Shown here piece by piece: positions 754-64,000 of a DNA stretch of 64,000 bases; the stretch's first letter is position 1; each line of letters begins with the position of its first letter. Under the pieces are notes generated by a model that had not been told where the DNA came from, did no database searches, and saw only the letters and a list, made by a program, of their open reading frames with translations. Source of the stretch: Paraspadella gotoi (Eukaryota; Animalia; Chaetognatha); NCBI GenBank assembly GCA_051294375.1, contig CM119266.1:2907812-2971811 (forward strand). Reading direction: 5' to 3'. A program made the position numbers and the translations under genes.

Positions 754-3700
754 ATGTCATCCATCAACGTTTGCCTGATCGGAGCAGGCGTTTCGGGTTG
801 CGCCTTTTTGAGCCACTTTGCTCGCCTGCAGCGAGAGGACGCCGCCTCCGACTCCACCGTCACCTGCTTCGAGAAGCAACGTGACTGGGGCGGGATGTGG
901 AATTACGACTGGCGCACCTCTGTGGACGAGTTTGGTGAACCCGTCCACTGCAGCATGTATAGACACTTGTGGACGAACGAGCCTAAGGTGTTGATTAGTG
1001 AGTTATTGATTAACCGGATTAAATTCTAGTAACGATGCAAATACTTATCAAAAGTTTTCTATATATAGTTAAAAAAAAAAAACAAACGGGAAAAATATTA
1101 ATTATCAATTACGCATTATTTTTCTTTTTTTTTTGCGGGGGGGGGGTTTAAAAAGAAAATTAATATAATATTTTTCGCCGACTATTTACCAATTCAAAAT
1201 TTACTCGGGTGTCCCAACTCGAGGAAGTGATGGAGTTCTCCGACTACACCTACTCTGACCACTTCGGACGAGCCATTCCGAGCTTCCCCCCTCGCGCCGT
1301 TGTCACCGATTATCTCAAGGCCAAGTGGGAGAAGGACGGGATTCGTCGCTTTGTGCGATTCGGTCACGTGATCAGGAGGGTGGAATACGACGAAAAACGA
1401 GGCGAATTCGTTGTCGTCGTCAAGGTTGGAAATCGGATTCGTATGTCTGTCTCTATTTATACATTATTAATTTCTGCCTATAGAATTAACGAAAAATATT
1501 AAATATTTCCATTCATTCAATAATCATTTATTTACTTTGCTCTTTTCATTAATGAGTAAATCCATAAATTTCGTTCATTAATTCTGAAGAGACAGTGATA
1601 ATTGATAAGTGTTAATGACAGAACCGTTCAATATAAGCAGTCCCTGAGCTTCGGATCAGGCTGTAACACCATGTTACAGGCGGGTTAAGCGCCCCGTCCC
1701 TCTTAACTGCTAGGCGGCCACCGGGCTAGAATGACCAATGACCACTGATGAACGGTTGGTGGATTTTGGTCCACCATACATCCCCCCCTCCCATAGGGAG
1801 AAGTCTGTTGCGTCTCTTCAGTGAATTGTTGGTGGAAAGTTCGTCACCAAGTTGAGGCATGTCGCCTGATGTGTTGTGGGCGGAAAGTGCATCGCCAGGT
1901 TGAGGCATGTCGCCTGAAAGTGTTGTTGTTGCTGTTGTGTTCGGAAGTCGGGCTCACCAATGAAGAGACAGTGATAATTGATAAGTGTTAATGACAGAAC
2001 CGTTCAATATAAGCAGTCCCTGAGCTTCGGATCAGGCTGTAACACCATGTTACAGGCGGGTTAAGCGCCCCGTCCCTCTTAACTGCTAGGCGGCCACCGG
2101 GCTAGAACCCCGGACCTTTGGGTTGGGAGGCGAATGACTTGCCTCCGGCACCAATGACCGCTGATGAACGGTTGGTGGATTTTGGTCCACCATAATTCAT
2201 TTAAGTCTTTAACTATTGTAATTCATTTATCATTCAGGTGGTCATTTTCTTCACATATTCATTTAATAATAAACTTTTTCAATAATTTACTGAATTTTTA
2301 AATTCATACACGCTTTCTTGTATTTATTCATTCATGCATTCCTTTATTAATCATTCTGTCACTTAATTCATTTATCCTTACATCCCGCCCATCAGGATCT
2401 AATCTCCGACGCCGATCTTCCTCCACTCCGGTTCTCCCACGTCGTGGTCGCCTCCGGTCACCACTCCGTTCCCAACGCCCCTTCCTTCACCGGAGTGGAA
2501 ACCTTTCCCGGTCGAGTCCTTCATTCCCACGAGCTACGCGACTTCGCCGACTTAACCGACAAGTCGGTCCTCGTTGTGGGCGGTAATCCGTCGGCCCATG
2601 ACTCGGCCCTTCAGTGCTTGAAGTTCGGGTCGCGAAAGATCGTCGTCTCCAGCCGATCGCGGAACTGGGTCGATAGAATGGTAATAGTATTGAATAAAAA
2701 ACAGAAGAGCAACAAAACGAAAGAGATCGAATAAGATGTTAATCATTTTGAGTGAGATTGACTTCCTCAATCTCATTTGCATATTGTCGTGTTTTGACCT
2801 AGACTAAAGTATGATATATATGGATAAATATGTTAACTGGTATGCTGGTAAACATCATCATGCTGCTAAATTTTTTTTTCACGAATTAGTTCTTAACATT
2901 TTACATGTTTCTATTTTTTATGAATTGGTACAACCAATTGAAAATTATCCATTCATTTAATAAATAAATCAGCAAGATAATATAGGATATAATATATATT
3001 ATATAATATATAATATAGCAGGTCCCTGCAAGCTTTCAATCAAGATTCTCTCACAGTCTCGTTTATTCACTCCTGATGCGTATTATTATTAATCATTGTT
3101 TATTTGATTTGTGCCTATTCTATTATCGTTTCCCTTTCAGCCCTGTGAGCATCGTGTGTCTATTATCATAGAAAGTACGTGTTTCAGTGTGAGTCCTATA
3201 TCAGTTGGCGTCCCCCGTTCTCTTGTGTATTCTTATTCACAGATCCTAAACAGTGGGCAACATTGTGGTCGACCGTGCCGTCCCGTGTGGTTAACTGACA
3301 ATGTGATCTACGCGTTAGAGGGTCTCGTGCTTCCCAAGCCCGGCCGGCGCCCGCCGGCATCGCCCACAACAATCCTCCTCTAACATACCAATGCATAAAT
3401 CTATTCCTTACAGGTGTGGCCCGAGGGCATGGAGTTGAAGCCGTTGTTGAAACGTTTCGATGGCAGGACGGCGGAGTTCGACGATGAATCGACGGAAGAG
3501 TTCGATGTTGTCATCTTTGCGACTGGATATTTGCATTCCTTTCCTTTTATGCAGGAAGGATTGAAGTTGAAGATGGGGAAGCAGAATAGGTGAGGGAGGA
3601 GGAGGAGGAGGAGGAGGGGGGAGGGGAAGAGAGAGAGAAAGCTAGAGAAAACCAGGAACGGTTATTCCAAGGTGTTGCGCCGAATTACTTTTCTTTTTAC

Positions 3701-6461
3701 TTATCTTTTCTTTAAAAAAAGGCGGTGCCAGAAGTTGCTTAGATTTGATTTTTAACAAATGAGCAACAAACTTTAGGCAAGTTATAAGCGTTTTTAACAT
3801 AAGTGGGACAGACCGACGGACAGACATACCGACCGACGGACCGACCGACCGAAAAGTGACTTATAGAGTCGCTCCACGAGTACTAGCGGCGCAACTAAAA
3901 AGAGAGAAAAAGATAGTAAGAAAATAAGAGAGACAGAAAAGTGACGTGTCATTTCATGAGATGTCATGTCGCCAAAAGAGAGTAAAAAAAAATTTAAAAC
4001 TACCGAAACTATTTTAAATTTGGTACAACCAATATAAAAAATATTCATTCATTCAATAAATAGTATTAAATAGTATTAAATAAATAAATAGTATTAAATA
4101 TGACTTTGGACAGGCGATGAATGGTTAAGTCTTCCGTCCCCCTTTTCAATCAAGACTATCTCACAGTCCATTGAGTTTATTTACAGGAGTATGATTAAAA
4201 ATTGGAAAATATCGATGCTTTTTGTTTTACTTTGAAATAAAACTCTTGCTCATTTGTTCTCCCATAATCAAGAATCACGTCGGGTCCGTTGCTTTACAAT
4301 CTCAGCCTCTTTCTCGGAGGCGGAGAACTGAAACTATTTTACCTCGGGATGGCATCCTTCATGGTCATGTCTTTCTTCGACGCATGCGCACTTTGGACGG
4401 CCAACGTCATTTTCGGTCGGTTCTCTTTGCCGACACCGGCGTACATGAAGGAGGAGGCGGAGAGGTGGTGTCGGGTTGAGGACGAAACCGAATTTGGGTT
4501 CCAGACGCTCATGAAGAAGGTATGACAACAACAACAAGAATAACAACAACAATCAGGAACCAATCTATCAGGGGGAAAGAGGGGTATATTATATAATAGT
4601 GATAAAAAGTATCTTTAAAATAGTAAAATAAAACATCTAACGATCGTATCATCGCAGGAGTATCAAGCCACCAAAAGCAAATCGGATCGGAGACTCGGGC
4701 GATCTCCGCGGAAATGGAATCGCCCAATCCTGATTGGTCAAGCATGGAACCGGAATCGACCAATTAGCTTGCAGAATCATTGGAACTGTAAATTTTACCC
4801 ACGTCGCCGATCCTCTTCCTTAGTTATAAATAGACTTAGCATGTTCTAGTTTCAGTAGTATTGATCAAGACTCCTGCGCGTGTCTCACCGTCACCTTTTT
4901 CTCAGAATAAAATCTCATCTTGATTTCGCCCCAAGAAATCCATGAGTTTTTCCTTAAATGTGGTGGCAGCGGTGAGATTCGAACCCACGCCTCCGAAGAA
5001 ACAATCCAAACTGCTAAAATACAGATCTGATCAAAAAAAGTTTAAACTTTGAACACCCTATTATCTCGCTTGTCTGCCGTTCTATTAATTAAAACTTGGG
5101 TTAATTTTAAAGCCAAGACAATTATATATGTGTTTTATTCGTTTACAACAATTAGTTGAAACAGTACATTCAAAAGGGCATACAGCATTACAGATAAACG
5201 CATAAATTATGTTTCTTTCGAGCCCATAACGAGGTTTCTAGTCAAAAGGATCAACATTTTGTCTTACATTTTACTTTTTATGTGTTTTTTTACCATGGAA
5301 ACTTCAAAACAGCTAACCTCCAAGATGATAGTTGTAATTGTTGAACTTTGGCACGCGGGTTTGTCAAGAGATAGGATCGCCAAACAGTTGAATTTCTCTC
5401 CAACTACCATCTGCAGAGTTGTCAAGAAATTTGAAGTAACTGGAGACCTTGGACGAGCTGTTGGAAGCGGGCGGCCTCGCATGGCAACGGATAGTGAGGA
5501 CGAGGACCTGAAAAGTTTTGCAATACAAGACCGTAAGGCTTCTGCAAACCATTTGAGAAAAAAATGGAGAGAAAGAGGAATTGTGGTCAGTCATCAAACA
5601 ATGAATAGGCGTCTTTTCATGGAGGATGGAGCTAATGGACACAAAGCGAAAACTACCCAAAAATGTCATGAGGAAAACGGGATCGAGGTGCTCGAAGGTT
5701 GGCCCGGAAACTCGCCTGACTGTAACATCATTGAAAACGTCTGGGAAAGGATGAAAAGGGACATTTGGCAGTACAACGCCATGACAGTTGACAAAATAAA
5801 GAAAATTGTAAAATGCATTTGGCGGGAGCTGAACCCTTCATTTTTGTGCAGCCTCTATGACTCTCTCCCTCATCGCATGGAAGCGGTGCTGGGAGCAAAT
5901 GGTGGTCCGACCAAGTACTAATTAACTGAGTCATAAAAAGTGTAATTTTCCTTCAAATAGCTAAATAATCTGCTTTTATCACTACTATTTTTTGAGCAGA
6001 TCTGTATGTAAATTGGATATAAAGACCTCAATCTAATTTTAAGTAAAACAAAAATACTAAAATCAACTACTATTAAGACAAAAATAAAAAAAAGATGAGA
6101 TTTAATAAATTTTAAATAAAAAAATGTATCTTTCATCAGTCCAGGCCAGCACATTTGGCAATAAACGGTCGCTACTAATCACGTATGAACTCACCCTTTC
6201 TCTCCAACTCCCATCACACTCTCACGACAGTTCGCCTTAATGGCTGAGATCAAATCCGCCAACGGCTCTGCCACCGACGACCTGGAGAGGATCGCCCAGT
6301 TGTACGCCTCCTTCGCCAAAGACTACAACAACAACCGAGTCACCTTTCGAGATCGAGGCTACACGTCTATTTACTCGGGCAAGATGGCGCCGCCGCATCA
6401 TACGCGATTCATGGAGGCGTTCGATGATTCCATGGAGGATTTCTTGAAGGCGGGAAATTGA
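754..6461 (+). CDS. Flavin-containing monooxygenase, bacterial trimethylamine monooxygenase (Tmm/mFMO)-like, 6 exons
   Basis: Phase-consistent exons 754-987, 1224-1424, 2396-2680, 3414-3589, 4273-4519, 6231-6461. Motifs: FAD GAGVSG; DWGGMWNYDWRT; SMYRHLWTNEPKEVMEF; FPGRVLHSHEL; NADPH-site GGNPSA; FATGY; C-terminal FRDRGYTSIYSGKMAPPHHTRFMEAFDDSMEDFL. AATAAA near 6663. Confidence 0.92.
1585..2194 (-). mobile_element. TRIM-type non-autonomous LTR element with a tRNA-like sequence inside the LTR (Helenus/Cassandra-like)
   Basis: Direct repeats at 1961-2194 and 1585-1780. On the minus strand the LTR ends TCTCTTCA and is followed by TGGTGAGCCCGAC (tRNA-Trp-type PBS). PPT GGGAGGGGGGGA precedes the TGTATGG start of the other LTR. 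ATTC flanks both ends. The 180-bp internal region shows no recognisable retroelement coding. Confidence 0.85.
3074..3385 (-). mobile_element. Candidate solo LTR
   Basis: Minus strand reads TGTTAG...AATAAA...CATCA; a more GC-rich 312-bp island that interrupts a dispersed repeat. No clear TSD. Confidence 0.35.
4645..4999 (+). mobile_element. LTR-like segment followed by a tRNA-Leu-complementary PBS extended to 39 nt
   Basis: TATAAA near 4825 and AATAAA near 4906, then TGGTGGCAGCGGTGAGATTCGAACCCACGCCTCCGAAGA (4961-4999), the reverse complement of a tRNA-Leu(AAG/TAG) 3' half including CCA. The 5' boundary is approximate. Confidence 0.6.
5022..6004 (+). mobile_element. Internally deleted Tc1-family DNA transposon in FMO intron 5
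   Basis: TA on both sides; TIRs CAGATCTGATCAAAAAAAGT and ACTATTTTTTGAGCAGATCTG; contains a transposase ORF. Confidence 0.9.
5295..5921 (+). pseudogene. Tc1-like transposase with in-frame internal deletion
   Basis: HTH region, GSGRPR linker and second HTH are fused directly to FMEDGANGH...WPGNSPDCNIIENVW...GGPTKY. The segment carrying the first catalytic Asp is absent. Confidence 0.85.
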
Positions 6462-14164: not shown

Positions 14165-38896
<24,732 letters not shown>

Positions 38897-54600: not shown

Positions 54601-55384
54601 CAGTTCGAAAAGCTGCAGTCGGCGCTGCAGCAGGAGCGCAATCGGCAGGTGCGAGCCTACGAAGCCGTGCAGCGTCCGGGACAATTTCCTAGAGTTTCGC
54701 AGATGGTGGCCGAGCAGCAGGCGCAGCAGGCGCGGGAGGCGGTCGTCGCCGCGGAGCAGCGGGAGAGGGAAAGGGCTGCTGCAGAGAAAGCGTCAAAGTT
54801 GGAGCCTGTCCGGGCTGCGCTGAGGAATGCGCAGCGAGCCGTGCAGCAAGAAGCCAGGTGGGGTCTTCTAGGAAGTGAAAATAGGGACCAACCTGTAAGA
54901 ATGTCTCACTCTCACTCTCTCTCACTCTCTCTTTCTTCCCATCTCCAGACTGGGCGCTCGGCAGGCCGTGGAGCGGGCGACGCAGAAAGCCTCGGCGGAG
55001 GCGGCTTTAAAGGCGGAGAGAGAGGCGGCGGAGGCGGCGGCTCTGGCGGCGGAGCAGGAAGCGGCTGAGGCGGCGGCGAAAGAGGCGGAGAGGCAATCGG
55101 CGATTGAGAGATTGAACGCCCCCAATCCGGAGCTGGAGAAGTTGACGAGGGCGTCGAAGAATTGGAACGCCGTCGCGGACGCGGCGGAGCAGGAGGAAGC
55201 GTGGTTGGCCGGAGAGCGAGACGTCCGATTGGTCGAGACGAAGCGAGGAGGGTCTTCGAAGCCGTCGACGGCTTGGAGTAGGATCGAGGAAGATTTGAGG
55301 ATCAGGATTTGCGGGAGACATCGGGATTTGTTGGGTGGGTTTGATGGAGTTTTGCTAATTATGGGTTTGATGGAGTTTTGCTAA
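40512..55384 (+). CDS. Large multi-exon Ala/Glu/Asp-rich low-complexity/coiled-coil protein of unknown function with repeated Trp motifs
   Basis: Phase-consistent GT-AG exon chain: 42565-42784, 43088-43182, 43255-43334, 43651-43821, 43906-44073, 44517-44772, 45048-45446, 45660-46085, 46429-46635, 46736-47565, 47765-47831, 48257-48643, 49132-49347, 49439-50163, 50588-50755, 51099-about 51431. Further probable exons at about 52641-52784, 54327-54463, 54526-54857 and 54949-55330. Probable first coding exon about 40504-40607. Start and end are uncertain. Confidence 0.75.
40988..41931. mobile_element. Palindromic MITE/foldback element with TA flanks
   Basis: TA-GAGCGTTCAAAGATAACAAAATATAA ... TTATATTTTGTTATCTTTAAACGCTC-TA; the imperfect inverted repeat extends several hundred bp inward; no ORF. 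Confidence 0.85.
49756..50086 (+). repeat. Coding 15-bp tandem repeat encoding (A-A-R-I-D/E) x about 21
   Basis: AGAATCGA(G/C)GCNGCN units with mostly third-position variation, inside an exon. Confidence 0.9.
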
Positions 55385-55668
55385 TTAAGGGTTTGATGGT
55401 GTTTTGCAAATTAAGGGTTTGATAGAGTTTTGCTAATTAAGGGTTTGATCTTTGATGGAGTTTTGCTAATTAATGGTTTGATGGAGTTTTGCTAATTAAG
55501 GGTTTGATGGAGTTTTGCTAATTGAGGGTTTGATGGAGTTTTGCTAATTAAGGGTTTGATGGAGGTTTGCTAATTAAGAGTTTGATGGAGTTTTACTAAT
55601 TAAGGGTTTGATGGAGTTTTGCTAATTAAGGGTTTGATGGAGTTTTTCTAATTAAGGGTTTGATGGAG
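55336..55668. repeat. 26-bp minisatellite
   Basis: GGGTTTGATGGAGTTTTGCTAATTAA x about 12; a longer inverted array lies at 57373-58120. Confidence 0.95.
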
Positions 55669-56034
55669 GGTTGACTTCTAGGAGCGTCTCAATAAATAAG
55701 TGTTATTAATGTTATTCGTTATAGATTATATCGTAGACGTAGACACACCTGATCGGCCTATAGGCCTATTTCCGTGATGATATATTTAATTATTAATTAT
55801 TAACAGCAATTATCGTAATAATGATTAACTGATGCCCCAGACTCGAACCACGAACCCTCTCAAGAAATGTTCTCCGATTGGCTGTCGCGTCAGGCCGGCG
55901 AAATATCATTGCGGAAGCTCAACTTATGTCGTGTTCTTTTTATTTCGTTCTTCGTCACTCCATTTTCGATTTTTTCTTGTCTTGACAAAGAGCCTCTCTT
56001 CTTCTCTTCTCTCTTTTCCTCTTCTCTCTCTCTC

Positions 56035-56068
<34 letters not shown>

Positions 56069-56725
56069 AATAAGCATTTGTCTTCGTTTTTCAATTCTTC
56101 TCACGTTGTGTGTATGTACACCTTCATGCATAAGATTTAAGTTGAATTTATTATTTAACCTATCTCCCTCTCTCTCTCTCTCTCGCCCTTCAATTCCACA
56201 TCACGTCCTCTTATCTCAGACACTTTCATGTCTTCCATTATTAGTTATTAATAACTCTATTCTATTTCATTTTATCTTCCAATGATGAATCTTCCAACCC
56301 ATATAGGGCCTCAATCAATCTCGGCTTCTCATTTAGTCCCGCCACCTAATCAGTGTAACCCCCCCTGCCCCCAACTCTGTCTCACACTTGGCACCAACTT
56401 CCACCCTCATCGCCACCTCCTATCTCCACCCCGCCCCCCCCCTCAAACCTGCTCCACTCTTCCTCTTTTCCTCTTCCTCCTCTCGGAACCGAACCGCCCT
56501 CAGGACGGCGTCTTCAGCGGCGTAAGCAGCCGCGTAAGCAGCGGCGGCGTGGCGCCACTGCTGGCGGCGTTATTGAAATCCGAGTTGGCGCCGTCTGAAA
56601 AAAATTAAGACGACTCGACGGTGAAGGAAGGAAAAGAGAGAGAGAGAAAAGCTTAATGGGGAAATCAATTCGGGAGACTGAGAAAGGCGCGTGAACTATC
56701 TCCCTGGAGAGAGAGAGAGAAAGAG

Positions 56726-56802
<77 letters not shown>

Positions 56803-56994
56803 GTGAGAAAAGAGAGAGAGAGTAGAGAGAGAGAGAGTGACTTAAATTTTTTTTTAAAATTCACTGAGGAGAGACGACGACGACGACACGACGACGACGA
56901 CGACGACGAAGACAAGAACCGATAAATTGAAGAGACGTTTAGTGTCTCACGGTGTGACCTCTCTCTGTCTCTCTGTCTCTCTGTCTCTCTCTCT

Positions 56995-57059
<65 letters not shown>

Positions 57060-57139
57060 TTACCGTTATTCCATTGAACGTTCCCGGCGCCAAAGTCTCT
57101 CTCCGCGCGCCGGTTCCGCGACGTTGGCCGATCGGCGCC

Positions 57140-58136
57140 GATTTTCGCCGGCCTGACGCGACAGCCAATCGAGAACATTTCTTGAGAGGGTTCGTGGTTC
57201 GAGTCTGGGGCATCAGTTAATCATTATTACGATAATTGCTGTTAATAATTAATATTAATATATCAATCACGGAAATAGGCCTATAGGCCGATCAGGTGTG
57301 TCTACGTCTACGATATAATCTATAACGAATAACATTAATAACACTTATTTATTGAGAGGCTCCTAGAAGTCACCCTCCATCAAACCCTTAATTAGAAAAA
57401 CTCCATCAAACCCTTAATTAGCAAACCCATCAAACCTTAATTAGCAAAACTCCATCAAACCTTAATTAGCAAACTCCATCAAACCTTAATTAGCAAACCT
57501 CCATCAAACCCTTAATTAGCAAAACTCCATCAAACCCTCAATTAGCAAAACTCTTCAAACCTTATTAGCAAAATCATCAAACTCTTAATTAGCAAACCTC
57601 TCATCAAACCCTTAATTAGCAAAACTCCTTCAAAGTCAAACCTTAATTAGCAAAAAACATCAAACCTTAATTAGCAAAACTCCATCAAACCCTTAATTAA
57701 AAAACTCCATCAAACCCTTAATTAGCAAAAACTCCATCAAACCCTTAATTAGCAAAACTCCATCAAACTCTTAATTAGCAAAACTCCATCAAACCCTCAA
57801 TTAGCAAAACTCCATCAAACCCTAATTAGGCAAAATCTACAACACTATACAACTCCATCAAACTCTTAATTAGCAAACCTCATCAAATCCTTAATTAGCA
57901 AAACTCCATCAAACCATTAATTAGCAAAACTCCATCAAACCCTTAATTAGCAAAACTCCATCAAACTCTTAATTAGCAAACCTCCATCAAACCTTAATTA
58001 GCAAAACTCCTTCAAGATCAACCTTAATTAGCAAAACACCATCAACCCTTAATTAGCAAAACTCCATCAAACCTTAATTAGCAAAACTCCATCAACCATA
58101 ATTAGCAAACTCCATCAAACCACCCAACAAATCCCG
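57140..58136 (-). repeat. Inverted duplicate of 55322-55905, including an expanded minisatellite and ending at an N-gap
   Basis: Reverse complement of GATGCCCCAGACTCGAACCACG and its flanks; many homopolymer-type differences from the first copy. Confidence 0.9.
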
Positions 58137-58161
58137 NNNNNNNNNNNNNNNNNNNNNNNNN

Positions 58162-58796
58162 TAGTTCACGCGCCTTTCTCAGTCTCCGAATTGATTTCCC
58201 CATTAAGCTTTTCTCTCTCTTCTCTTTTCCTTCCTTCACCGTCGAGTCGTCTTAATTTTTTTCAGACGGCGCCAACTCGGATTTCAATAACGCCGCCAGC
58301 AGTGGCGCCGCCGCCGCTGCTTACGCGGCTGCTTACGCCGCTGAAGACGCCGTCCTGAGGGCGGTTCGGTTCCGAGAGGAGGAAGAGGAAAAGAGGAAGA
58401 GTGGAGCAGGTTTGAGGGGGGGGGCGGGGTGGAGATGAGAGGTGGGGCATGAGGGTGGAAGTCGGTGCCAAGGTGGAGACAGAGTTGGGGGCAGGGGGGG
58501 TTACACTGATTAGGTGGGCGGGACTAAAGTGAGAAGCCGAGATTGATTGAGGCCCTATATGGGTTGGAAGATTCATCATTGGAAGATAAAATGAAATAGA
58601 ATGAGTTATTAATAAACTAATATGGAAGACATGAAAGTGTCTGAGATAAGAGGACGTGATGTGGGAATTTGAAGGGCGAGAGAGAGAAGAGAGAGGAGAT
58701 AGGTTAAATATAAATTCAACTTAAATCTTATGCAATGAAGGTGTACATAACAACGTAGAGAGAAGAATTGAAAAACGAAGACAAATGCTTATATAA

Positions 58797-58875
<79 letters not shown>

Positions 58876-58945
58876 CTCTGTTGTCAAGACAAAAGAAAAA
58901 ATCGAAAATGGATGACGAAGAAACGAATAAAAAGAACACGAGCGA
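58162..58945 (-). repeat. Inverted duplicate of about 55925-56698
   Basis: Near-identical ORF translations on opposite strands (56282-56608 + and 58262-58579 -). Confidence 0.9.
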
Positions 58946-59998
58946 TAAGTTTTTCGAGCTTCCGAAAAAAAAGGATTTTCTCCGAATTAATTTCGGGTCA
59001 TCAATCATTCAATCGGTCCCTCACTCAGACCCTAACTCACTAATCAGCTCATTAATTTCGGTTTTCAATGATTACTTTTCAGTTATCACCATTAAATTCC
59101 ATCATTCCTCGGAAATCGTAATTTTTAGATGGTATTAAATAACTATGAGACAATTTTCTTCGTCATCACGACGCGAGTCTCACTTGTTTTTCTGAATGAT
59201 CACGTGATTTGGAGGATTTTTGATAGCTTCATCTGTGAAACGTGAATCTGAAATTGAGGAAAAGTGAAGGAAGTCAGAAAGGAAGAGTTAAGAAAGGAAA
59301 TTACAGGGACTTCAATCAGAACTGATACGAAAAATCTTGTAATATAATCGAAACGAAGAGCAATCAGGTTATAAAATATTTTCATACTAATAGAAAAATA
59401 CTTGACTTGTTTTTTCTACCAATTTGTAACATTCTAGTTAGGATAGTTGCTATGTTATAAACATTTTCTTAGAAGGTAAATTTCTAAAGAAGCAGATTTT
59501 TTACTTTGAATGAATCTTACCATCAATTCTTAGTTCTCATTAAAACAATGGTTTTTTCTATGCTTTATTTTTTTTTATTAATAAGATACTGTAGTAAATG
59601 TATCATGAACCAGAATATAAAAAATTATATTATGATTTTCCCTTTAAAATCTATTAAAAATAAAAATTTCAGCTTGGGGGAAAATAACAAATCCCCAAAC
59701 TGACTTTTTATCATAAAATATTTTTATTTGTATATCAGATAACTTAACAATCAGCGTCAAAAATGTTAAAATAATAAAAACTGTTAAAATTTGGACAAAA
59801 TAAAATAGAAAAACGTGACTCCGCGCTTGAGAGCCACTGTCATTATACTATTAGGAAATTTGCCATTTTTTTTTAGGTCAACATAAACGATCCAGTAGAC
59901 TTCTAACTAATAAATGTTATATAGTGAAATAATTACGAGTTAATTAGGTCTTTTCGTATCGCCTCCAGATTGAAGTCCCTGGAGAGAGAGAGAGAGAA

Positions 59999-63238: not shown

Positions 63239-63256
63239 GTGAGAAATATATACTGT

Positions 63257-63339
<83 letters not shown>

Positions 63340-63429
63340 TCTCTCTCCTTTACCGTTATTCATTGAACGTTCCCGGCGCCAAAGTCTCTCTCCGCGACGC
63401 TGTTCCGCGCGTTGGCCGATCGGCGGCCG

Positions 63430-64000
63430 GAAAAAAAGGATTTTCTCCGAATTAATTTCGGGTCATCAATCATTCAATCGGTCCCTCACTCAGACCCTCA
63501 CTCAGACCCTAACTCACTAATCAGTCATTAATTTCGGGTTTTCAATGATTACTTTTCAGTTATCACCCATTAAATTCCATCATTCCTCGGAAATCGTAAT
63601 TTTTAGATGATATTAATAACTATGAGACAATTTTCTCGTCATCACGACGCGAGTCTCACTTGTTTTTCTGAAATGATCACGTGATTTGGAGGATTTTTGA
63701 TAGCTTCATCTGTGAAACGTGAATCTGAAATTGAGGAAAAGTGAAGGAAGTCAGGAAGGAAGAGTTAAGAAAGGAAATTACAGGGACTTCAATCAGAACT
63801 GATACGAAAAATCTTGTAATATAATCGAAACGAAGAGCAATCAGGTTATAAAATATTTTCATACTATAGAAAAATACTTGACTTGTTTTTTCTAACCAAT
63901 TTGTAACATTCTAGTTAGGATAGTTGCTATGTTATAAACATTTTTCTTAGAAGGTAAATTTCTAAAGAAGCAGAATTTTTACTTTGAAAGTGAATCTACA
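63430..64000 (+). repeat. Direct duplicate of about 58965-59520
   Basis: Identical spurious ORF translations at 59200-59385 and 63677-63862; 63340-63428 also resembles 57050-57140. Confidence 0.9.

Follow-up and report, generated by a model that had tools for sequence, protein, structure and literature searches.

A 64,000-nucleotide (nt) window of the Paraspadella gotoi genome (contig CM119266.1, positions 2,907,812 to 2,971,811) harbours a 610-bp non-coding element, whose layout of long terminal repeat (LTR) followed by primer-binding site (PBS), then polypurine tract (PPT) and second LTR is seen directly in the letters of the minus strand at 1585-2194. A tRNA-like unit stands near the start of the LTR, and the hairpins behind it are predicted to form a P5-type twister motif that would cut RNA. 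The reading that we favour, with a probability of roughly 0.55, is a non-coding LTR element promoted by RNA polymerase III (Pol III), in which a double twister cuts each LTR and the unit RNA is circularised and copied by a likely Gypsy-type helper. The first-pass annotation of the window had proposed a Pol III-driven parasite resembling short interspersed nuclear elements (SINEs). The high-copy, non-coding LTR element with a tRNA unit and a tRNA-Trp-like PBS was recovered; nevertheless, because the hairpins behind the tRNA-like unit form a twister motif, the element looks like an LTR retrozyme and not like a plain SINE-like terminal-repeat retrotransposon in miniature (TRIM).

Ribozyme motif of the element

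Read from 2087 to 2012, the 5' LTR shows the strand order P5, U-A-A, P2, G-A, T1, P1 segment, U-A-A, P2, T2, P3, P4 with loop L4, and P5 (Table 1). In its conserved letters of L1 and L4, the motif matches both the Rfam Twister-P5 consensus and Table 1 of PMC8501958. The single altered L4 letter is offset by an altered T1 partner, and the same G-C state occurs in seven of 16 structured natural cores, six of these seven being close kin. Both pseudoknots are intact (four of four pairs in T1, two of two in T2), and P2 can be read as two pairs plus C.A or as three pairs with a bulge. The motifs of the two LTRs are identical in sequence, and their predicted cuts lie 376 nt apart, or 416 nt with an undeleted LTR. 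Three stems of this region had already been placed correctly as further hairpins, whereas their role in a twister had been missed.

Natural twisters were collected for comparison with two loose patterns, which gave 177 viral loci with 116 distinct cores. Sixteen of these cores have P1, P2 and P4, and T1 is complementary in 16/16 of them versus 27/100 of the rest. Rfam called Twister-P5 at 13 of 18 chosen viral loci, and three of the five misses were unstructured controls. Model R2, composed of 14 phage twisters (the 13 called by Rfam plus L181), gave 15 matches on the window; the top rank went to a copy in a second repeat family (38372-38322; E 0.003), a site that had not been singled out beforehand, and the next two ranks to the copies in the LTRs (E 0.01). 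A descriptor of the motif, written after the motif had been seen, matched three of 20,000 LTR shuffles and none of 10 shuffled windows. Two narrow twister patterns had zero matches, and the one bacterial match of the twister probe was discarded as a chance match. As a separate observation, the phage contigs L160, L161, L186, L190, L191 and L203 carry Rfam-called P5 twisters with a three-pair P2 and the spacing found in the window.

The second repeat family is present in the window in several copies (Table 1). Compared with the LTR family, it has two-sided changes in P2, T1 and T2, a different P5, and the same C.A in P2. Its first 180-nt unit opens at the predicted cut (38534), 180 nt ahead of the next. 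On the letters of the two families, this covariation and the unit start at the cut are the strongest evidence that the fold is probably selected and cuts there. No LTR-PBS-PPT arrangement was seen around the second family, which is a candidate twister-based non-LTR retrozyme or SINE. Behind its copy at 35.2 kb, at 35295-35350 on the plus strand, the eye makes out a stretch resembling a T arm and B box, with a T run after it; the tRNA model R1, described below, gave it no score.

Six letters join T1 to the cut, GGCGCT in the LTR and AGGCCT in the second family, and both are self-complementary; a hexamer would be so by chance with a probability of about 0.05. Their two central letters, which would form the loop of a monomer, are swapped together between the families. 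The hexamer is palindromic in four of the six parsed copies, and the two exceptions also break T1, T2 or P2. As a monomer, the LTR P1 consists of one G.U pair, while two copies can form 6 bp. In both families, the swapped nested skeleton with a shared 6-bp P1 is about 10 kcal/mol better than two monomer skeletons. This self-complementary P1 suggests a double twister that two copies would build together. For hammerheads cleaving as dimers, passages of PMC7229834, PMC6765202 and PMC7761336 describe a one-pair helix III and a palindromic tetraloop.

tRNA-derived unit and primer-binding site

The letters of the tRNA-like unit, including acceptor stem, A-box-like and B-box-like motifs and T arm, were found where the first-pass annotation had placed them. 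Model R1, built from 15 phage tRNAs and the tRNA-Thr of the window (the pattern-picked phage tRNA and long-arm tRNAs being excluded), scores 2161-2089 at 17.1 bits (E 0.0015 for the 64 kb), which places it fourth of 19 matches, after three true tRNA genes. A 21-base pattern taken from the unit, with free positions chosen with a tRNA in mind, matches 12 viral-contig loci, all 12 of them tRNA genes in register (six distinct sequences; Thr, Asn, Ile). The earlier label tRNA-Gly-CCC did not hold: the anticodon position reads CCC, but two of five anticodon-stem pairs and the D stem are broken, and the unit has no ARAGORN or Rfam call. Judged by these letters, the unit is derived from a tRNA, has decayed and is no longer a tRNA.

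The unit likely acts as a Pol III promoter. Of 3000 shuffles, 50 contain A and B boxes with one mismatch each at tRNA spacing. Pairing is retained at each of the four variable acceptor-stem sites, and a variant of the A box gives the canonical A. None of the 21 variant sites falls within 2094-2145 (P 0.004-0.016, for a stretch picked after looking). The sense strand has no run of four T (T4) from about 2161 to 1496, that is, beyond the end of the element. The proposed match of the PBS to tRNA-Trp was reproduced at 12 of 13 positions against the 3' end of honey-bee tRNA-Trp (Kojima 2024, Fig. S2). A probe for the tRNA part found zero matches in viral and prokaryote contigs, and blastn against phages gave seven short matches, none annotated as tRNA. 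A metagenome match to the LTR-PBS junction was rejected as a chance match in a bacterial gene.

Element anatomy, insertion site and abundance

Sequence and contig breaks confirm the coordinates, minus-strand orientation and LTR-PBS-PPT-LTR anatomy of the 610-bp element. Both LTRs of the first-pass annotation are present, but the second, ending at 1585, starts at 1778 and is without 40 nt of the tRNA-like unit. The 180 bp given there as a spacer is correct in length, but covers the whole internal part (1960-1781), including PBS and PPT. The LTR pair is unequal, with 147 nt 100% identical, 45 nt 98% identical, and the 40 nt missing between the two blocks in the 3' LTR. This deletion takes out both promoter-like boxes. 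The joint across it is present at near single-copy depth in four of the eight sequencing runs compared (X1, X5, X7 and X8), and thus the deletion is not an assembly slip.

Table 1. Coordinates of the LTR element, its twister motif and tRNA-derived unit, and the second repeat family
Feature	Position	Strand	Evidence
5' LTR, 234 nt, TA...CA ends	1961..2194	-	sequence; loose contig ends at 1961 and 2194-2196
7-bp hairpin, 5' end of LTR	2173..2192	-	predicted fold
tRNA-derived unit with preserved acceptor stem and T arm, and with disrupted D and anticodon arms	2089..2161	-	tRNA model R1
A-box-like motif, one mismatch; family variant at 2147 is canonical A	2142..2153	-	sequence and variants
B-box-like motif, one mismatch	2100..2109	-	sequence
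P5-type twister motif, 5' LTR copy	2012..2087	-	layout, Rfam consensus, model R2
P5	2087-2082/2017-2012	-	twister layout, 5' LTR
P2	2076-2075/2060-2059	-	twister layout, 5' LTR
Conserved G-A	2074-2073	-	twister layout, 5' LTR
T1 pseudoknot	2072-2069/2031-2028	-	twister layout, 5' LTR
P1 segment, self-complementary hexamer	2064..2069	-	single copy, one pair with a palindromic tetraloop; two copies together, 6 bp
Predicted cleavage site U^A, 5' LTR	2062..2063	-	predicted from position in twister layout
T2 pseudoknot	2057-2056/2025-2024	-	twister layout, 5' LTR
P3	2055-2037	-	twister layout, 5' LTR
P4, 5 bp	2036-2019	-	twister layout, 5' LTR
Primer-binding site, tRNA-Trp-like, 12/13	1947..1959	-	sequence; zero listed variants inside, 8 runs
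48-nt tandem repeat, 2.1 copies, internal part	1826..1926	-	sequence
12-nt inverted repeat of 1958-1969 (LTR end / PBS start)	1812..1823	-	closes internal part in predicted folds
Polypurine tract, then TG (1780-1779)	1781..1792	-	sequence
3' LTR, 194 nt, 40 nt of tRNA-like unit deleted, twister motif intact (1711-1636)	1585..1778	-	sequence
Predicted cleavage site U^A, 3' LTR	1686..1687	-	predicted from position in twister layout
Likely target-site duplication, first copy, 4 bp (also readable as 5 or 6 bp)	1581..1584	.	sequence; contig breaks in X5
Likely target-site duplication, second copy	2195..2198	.	sequence
Second repeat family, 1.5 units of 180 nt, twister fold at 38372-38322	38264..38534	-	R2, parsing, repeat comparison
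Further second-family twister copy	35237..35290	+	R2, parsing
Second-family copy	34897-34775	-	repeat comparison
Second-family copy	48872-48725	-	repeat comparison
Second-family fragments	3073-2919 and 4062-4011	.	repeat comparison

In run X5, contigs with unrelated flanks end at 2194, 2195 and 2196 (42, 34 and 19 contigs), and their first letters are not shared. Since they stop at 2194-2196 without common first letters, the TA at 2194 is likely the family end, with 1778-1585 as the matching 3' LTR. At the PPT, TG precedes the same letters, whereas the 5' LTR opens with TA; two published LTRs of Helenus TRIMs likewise open with TA (PMC10886601 supplement). The same four bases stand at 1581-1584 and 2195-2198, as the first-pass annotation had reported for the flanks, although 5 or 6 bp fit as well. 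This repeat alone is weak, because the tetramer makes up 2-5% of positions in these flanks and a single copy of the element can be read with 4, 5 or 6 bp. In X5, flank contigs stop exactly at 1584 and 2193, the branching places expected for an empty allele with one target copy, which is an indirect indication; no contig joining both flanks was found among the joints listed (15 of 64 and 15 of 17).

The element sits between two exons of a plus-strand flavin-monooxygenase-like gene (Pfam matches 676-1026, 1164-1499, 2351-2731 and 3399-3590), and splice motifs place the insertion, by inference, in an intron of this gene. The two internal frames have zero Pfam matches, and no relatives of a 75-aa frame were found among 1.84 billion proteins. 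An interpretation of the internal part as the tail of a Gypsy pol frame, with 75 open codons across the PPT, was dropped as unsupported by Pfam or protein search. Through the inverted repeat 1812-1823/1958-1969, the 3' end of the internal part pairs with the end of the LTR and the first PBS letters; this repeat could be a cyclisation or packaging signal. The insertion flank at 1489-1524 is similar, at 81% across 36 nt, to the AT-rich tail found in the second repeat family.

Eleven sequencing runs contain the stretch, and the contigs of eight of them (all but X2-X4), six from one organism (organism A), were compared; summed contig depth in these data is not a copy number. Contigs pile up on the element in all six organism-A runs, where flank depth of 14-30 compares with 1e4-1e6 inside and falls off at the LTR ends. 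In X1, with 10,612 contigs on the stretch, flank depth is about 30 versus 2e5-1e6 inside the element. X9 barely covers the flanks, and X11, a biofilm run, consists of one 110-nt piece at depth 2, which was not used. Many unrelated flanks are attached at 1585, 1961 and 2194-2196. The element belongs to an interspersed, high-copy family and is not a local duplication; the unrelated flanks at the LTR ends in organism-A contigs speak against a simple tandem duplication of a tRNA-SINE. A second organism has one contig spanning 1848-1998 (internal part, PBS and LTR end) with nine differences in 151 nt. Within the 64-kb window, no further copy of the LTR element was found.

Proposed replication cycle and alternative explanations

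In the proposed cycle, Pol III would start at about 2161 and run through both LTRs, the first T4 lying at 1496. A lone twister copy is almost without P1, and the hexamers of the two LTRs would pair to a shared 6-bp P1 with two active sites, as in double hammerheads; cutting would be favoured once both LTRs are transcribed. The unit RNA of 416 nt (376 nt in this damaged copy, from 2062 to 1687) would comprise U5, PBS, PPT and U3 with no repeated ends, and would therefore need circularisation before it is copied. A host ligase would close it into a circle, and reverse transcription primed by tRNA-Trp would rebuild two LTRs, as proposed for plant retrozymes in passages of PMC4918200. The integrase of the helper would insert the copy and thereby produce the 4-bp duplication. 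A Gypsy-type helper is suggested because Kojima pairs animal Helenus with Gypsy, and because of the 4-bp duplication. On this model, the copy described here would pass its promoter deletion on to its descendants.

Several results weigh against this mechanism. Rfam reports no twister in the element, even at E 10, and since the motif lies below the Rfam cut-off, it is filed as a twister-like variant and not as a member of RF02684. The Rfam model has a P1 of 8 bp, and natural twisters, selected here for a P1 of at least 5 bp, have one of 6-9 bp; the third P2 pair of the LTR twister is C.A. On the LTR copies, R2 places P1 and P2 out of register; its E-values are approximate, and the twisters used to train it came from a pattern laid out on the LTR motif, which makes the match of the LTR copies partly circular. 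Pseudoknot-free folding puts T1b, P2a and T2a in a competing hairpin (pair probability 0.99), and the gap to a twister-compatible fold, 7.7 kcal/mol, is at the top of the range of 2.2-7.7 found for 13 natural twisters. The LTR folds equally well on the plus strand (z -3.3) as on the minus strand (z -3.4). Not every family variant preserves the predicted pairing: three of 14 variants in the structured part break a pair, versus 4.6-5.2 expected (P 0.16-0.22). Only one of 21 variant sites lies in the twister core, which is non-significant (P 0.06; 0.17 without the variable tail), and this sole variant, in about 3-7% of depth, breaks T1. The dimer idea rests on two independent hexamers; for the whole transcript, the double skeleton lies 15 kcal/mol above the free minimum and is only 4 better than two monomers (pseudoknots uncounted). 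As P1 is dispensable in vitro in twisters, according to passages of PMC5408937, a monomer may also cut without a partner. For the promoter, ARAGORN and Rfam (even at E 10) made zero tRNA calls at the unit, and a lack of T4 is also seen in 16% of shuffles.

An active twister might serve mainly to make a 3' end, which we regard as unlikely, though a serious competitor. Pol III RNA from 2161 would be cut only in the 3' LTR and would stay linear, with about 100 nt of terminal redundancy and ordinary strand transfer and no circle, and the ribozyme would replace the absent T-run terminator. The element has zero T4 runs inside, and many published Helenus LTRs show, by eye, a T run behind the tRNA part, where the twister stands here; passages of PMC8501958 likewise describe Schistosoma twisters trimming the RNA ends of a retrotransposon. 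The motifs of the two LTRs are identical, however, and a shared P1 would activate both sites, while nothing was seen that would silence the 5' copy. It is unlikely to a further degree that the element is an ordinary Helenus TRIM, mobile via read-through Pol III RNA, in which the twister is a relic that has lost its activity and came, for instance, from the second repeat family. The Rfam miss, near-absent P1, C.A in P2, competing hairpin and non-significant conservation tests all fit a relic, but both pseudoknots and P2 are kept by two-sided changes between the families, the twister core is almost invariant over thousands of contigs, and one second-family copy begins at the predicted cut.

The element could also be a twister LTR retrozyme made by read-through or Pol II, with the tRNA unit as a structural relic or a processing signal formed by acceptor stem and T arm, which seems improbable. 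Each box is mismatched at a conserved place, the acceptor stem and T arm are kept while the D and anticodon arms are refolded, and retrozymes are said to be without promoters in passages of PMC7761336. Against this, the boxes stand at the tRNA spacing that was rare among shuffles, zero listed variants lie between them, and both A-box variants stay in or move to the consensus. That there is no LTR element at all, and that the structure is a local tRNA-SINE duplication or an assembly artefact, is contradicted by the data and has next to no probability left. The flanking repeat is weak by itself (2-5% by chance) and small assembly errors occur elsewhere, in actin exons, but PBS and PPT lie exactly at the repeat borders, the internal part and the LTR are both deep in six organism-A runs, and contigs break at the LTR ends.

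Other features of the window

The window also includes a type-2 adenylate cyclase gene (14607-34227, minus strand), one intron of which encloses, in antisense orientation, a divergent actin gene (29015-33213, plus strand); a tRNA-Ser gene is located in the same intron. Two actin exons have small deletions or frameshifts, perhaps assembly errors. The actin exons are closest (95-98%) to environmental actins; in 18 clusters inspected, no sequence carries the name of a closely related taxon, and the only taxon given, a nematode, goes with a conventional actin. An adenylate cyclase exon reaches 87% identity at best, with type-2 enzymes of arthropods as well as of vertebrates. Both comparisons fit a bilaterian whose close relatives have no annotated proteome. 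A truncated tRNA-like fragment at 4964-5015 (minus strand, 16.8 bits with R1) adjoins a decayed Tc1/mariner-like transposase frame at 5160-5921 (plus strand). The regions 55322-59517 and 63253-63997 contain an 800-nt inverted pair (93%) and a 575-nt direct pair (95%) around minisatellite arrays.

Comparison with known systems

Similar to Helenus TRIMs (TRIMp3; Kojima 2024, PMC10886601), as defined in passages of that paper, the element is shorter than 1 kb, non-coding, and has two LTRs, PBS, PPT, a tRNA unit with a GGTTC box and a likely 4-bp duplication. The comparison with Helenus suggested by the first-pass annotation thus gave a fit to the structural definition, while six short probes had zero matches in the published consensus sequences (whole PMC10886601 supplement), among which more distant relatives may be present. 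By its structure, the element is a Helenus. Unlike in Helenus, the tRNA unit near the LTR start is followed by a twister and not by a T run, and this host may lie outside the six animal phyla listed in passages of PMC10886601. In those passages ribozymes are mentioned only via plant retrozymes and for no Helenus, and Pol III transcription and a Gypsy helper are unvalidated for Helenus itself. Passages of a chaetognath genome paper do not mention a tRNA-bearing TRIM.

Plant LTR retrozymes, as described in passages of PMC4918200, share with the element a non-coding nature, one ribozyme per LTR, PBS, PPT, a unit RNA without repeated ends, a proposed Gypsy helper and, likely, a 4-bp duplication. 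They differ in their type III hammerhead, tRNA-Met primer, unit of 600-1000 nt and lack of a tRNA-type promoter, and circles and cleavage were shown for them (PMC4918200), whereas for the element here both are predicted. Rfam found no hammerhead in the element. From its layout, it would work like an LTR retrozyme and is not a member as defined, having no hammerhead.

Compared with the type-P5 twister (RF02684; passages of PMC5408937), strand order, G-A, U-A-A, L4, both pseudoknots, P2, P4 and the optional P3 and P5 agree, while P1 is cut down to a self-complementary hexamer, P2 contains C.A, and the motif is below Rfam detection. The minimal helix with palindromic tetraloop and the tandem ribozymes are shared with hammerheads of animal non-LTR retrozymes and Penelope-like elements that cleave as dimers, following passages of PMC7229834, PMC6765202 and PMC7761336. 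According to the same passages, animal non-LTR retrozymes form small circles, and the second repeat family with its 180-nt unit resembles them; they differ from the LTR element in carrying a hammerhead and in being explicitly without LTR, PBS and PPT (PMC7229834). Perere-3 twisters of Schistosoma (Liu et al. 2021, passages of PMC8501958) also belong to an animal retroelement, have a weak or missing P1 and near-identical P3 and L4 letters, and the Perere-3 element ends at the cut, as does the first unit of the second family. Perere-3 differs in that its twister is P1-type and stands only once, at the 5' end of a non-LTR element that is autonomous (PMC8501958). Searches of the open-access literature, with subscription papers and Repbase outside their range, listed no animal LTR retrozyme, no LTR with a twister and no natural twister acting as a dimer.

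Behind the tRNA part, Helenus-2_SyJa-LTR and Helenus-2_SyUm-LTR contain what we take, by eye, to be a type III hammerhead-like motif with complementary loops. These two wasp LTRs are hints that ribozyme-bearing TRIMp3 elements recur. The two elements, from Synergus wasps, are also Trp-primed (PMC10886601 supplement) and are the nearest in design to the element described here. The broader claim combines an animal LTR retrozyme that carries a Pol III promoter of its own, a palindromic-P1 double twister and a 416-nt circular, tRNA-Trp-primed cycle, the same trick in a second, non-LTR family, and ribozyme-bearing Trp-primed Helenus elements unnoticed in wasps; we consider it tentative, at somewhat below even odds.

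Three things are added here to these known systems: the covariation across families in one window, the palindromic P1, and an element that ends where the cut is predicted. With its small size (about 600 bp) and high abundance, the element lends itself to short bench tests of cleavage, of dimer dependence, of circles and of Pol III use. If the proposed cycle is true, the route through a circle is independent of the ribozyme class, and the palindromic-P1 dimer twister parallels the double hammerhead and gives twisters a concrete biological role. The element would then join three designs described separately, the TRIM with a tRNA promoter, the LTR retrozyme and the twister.

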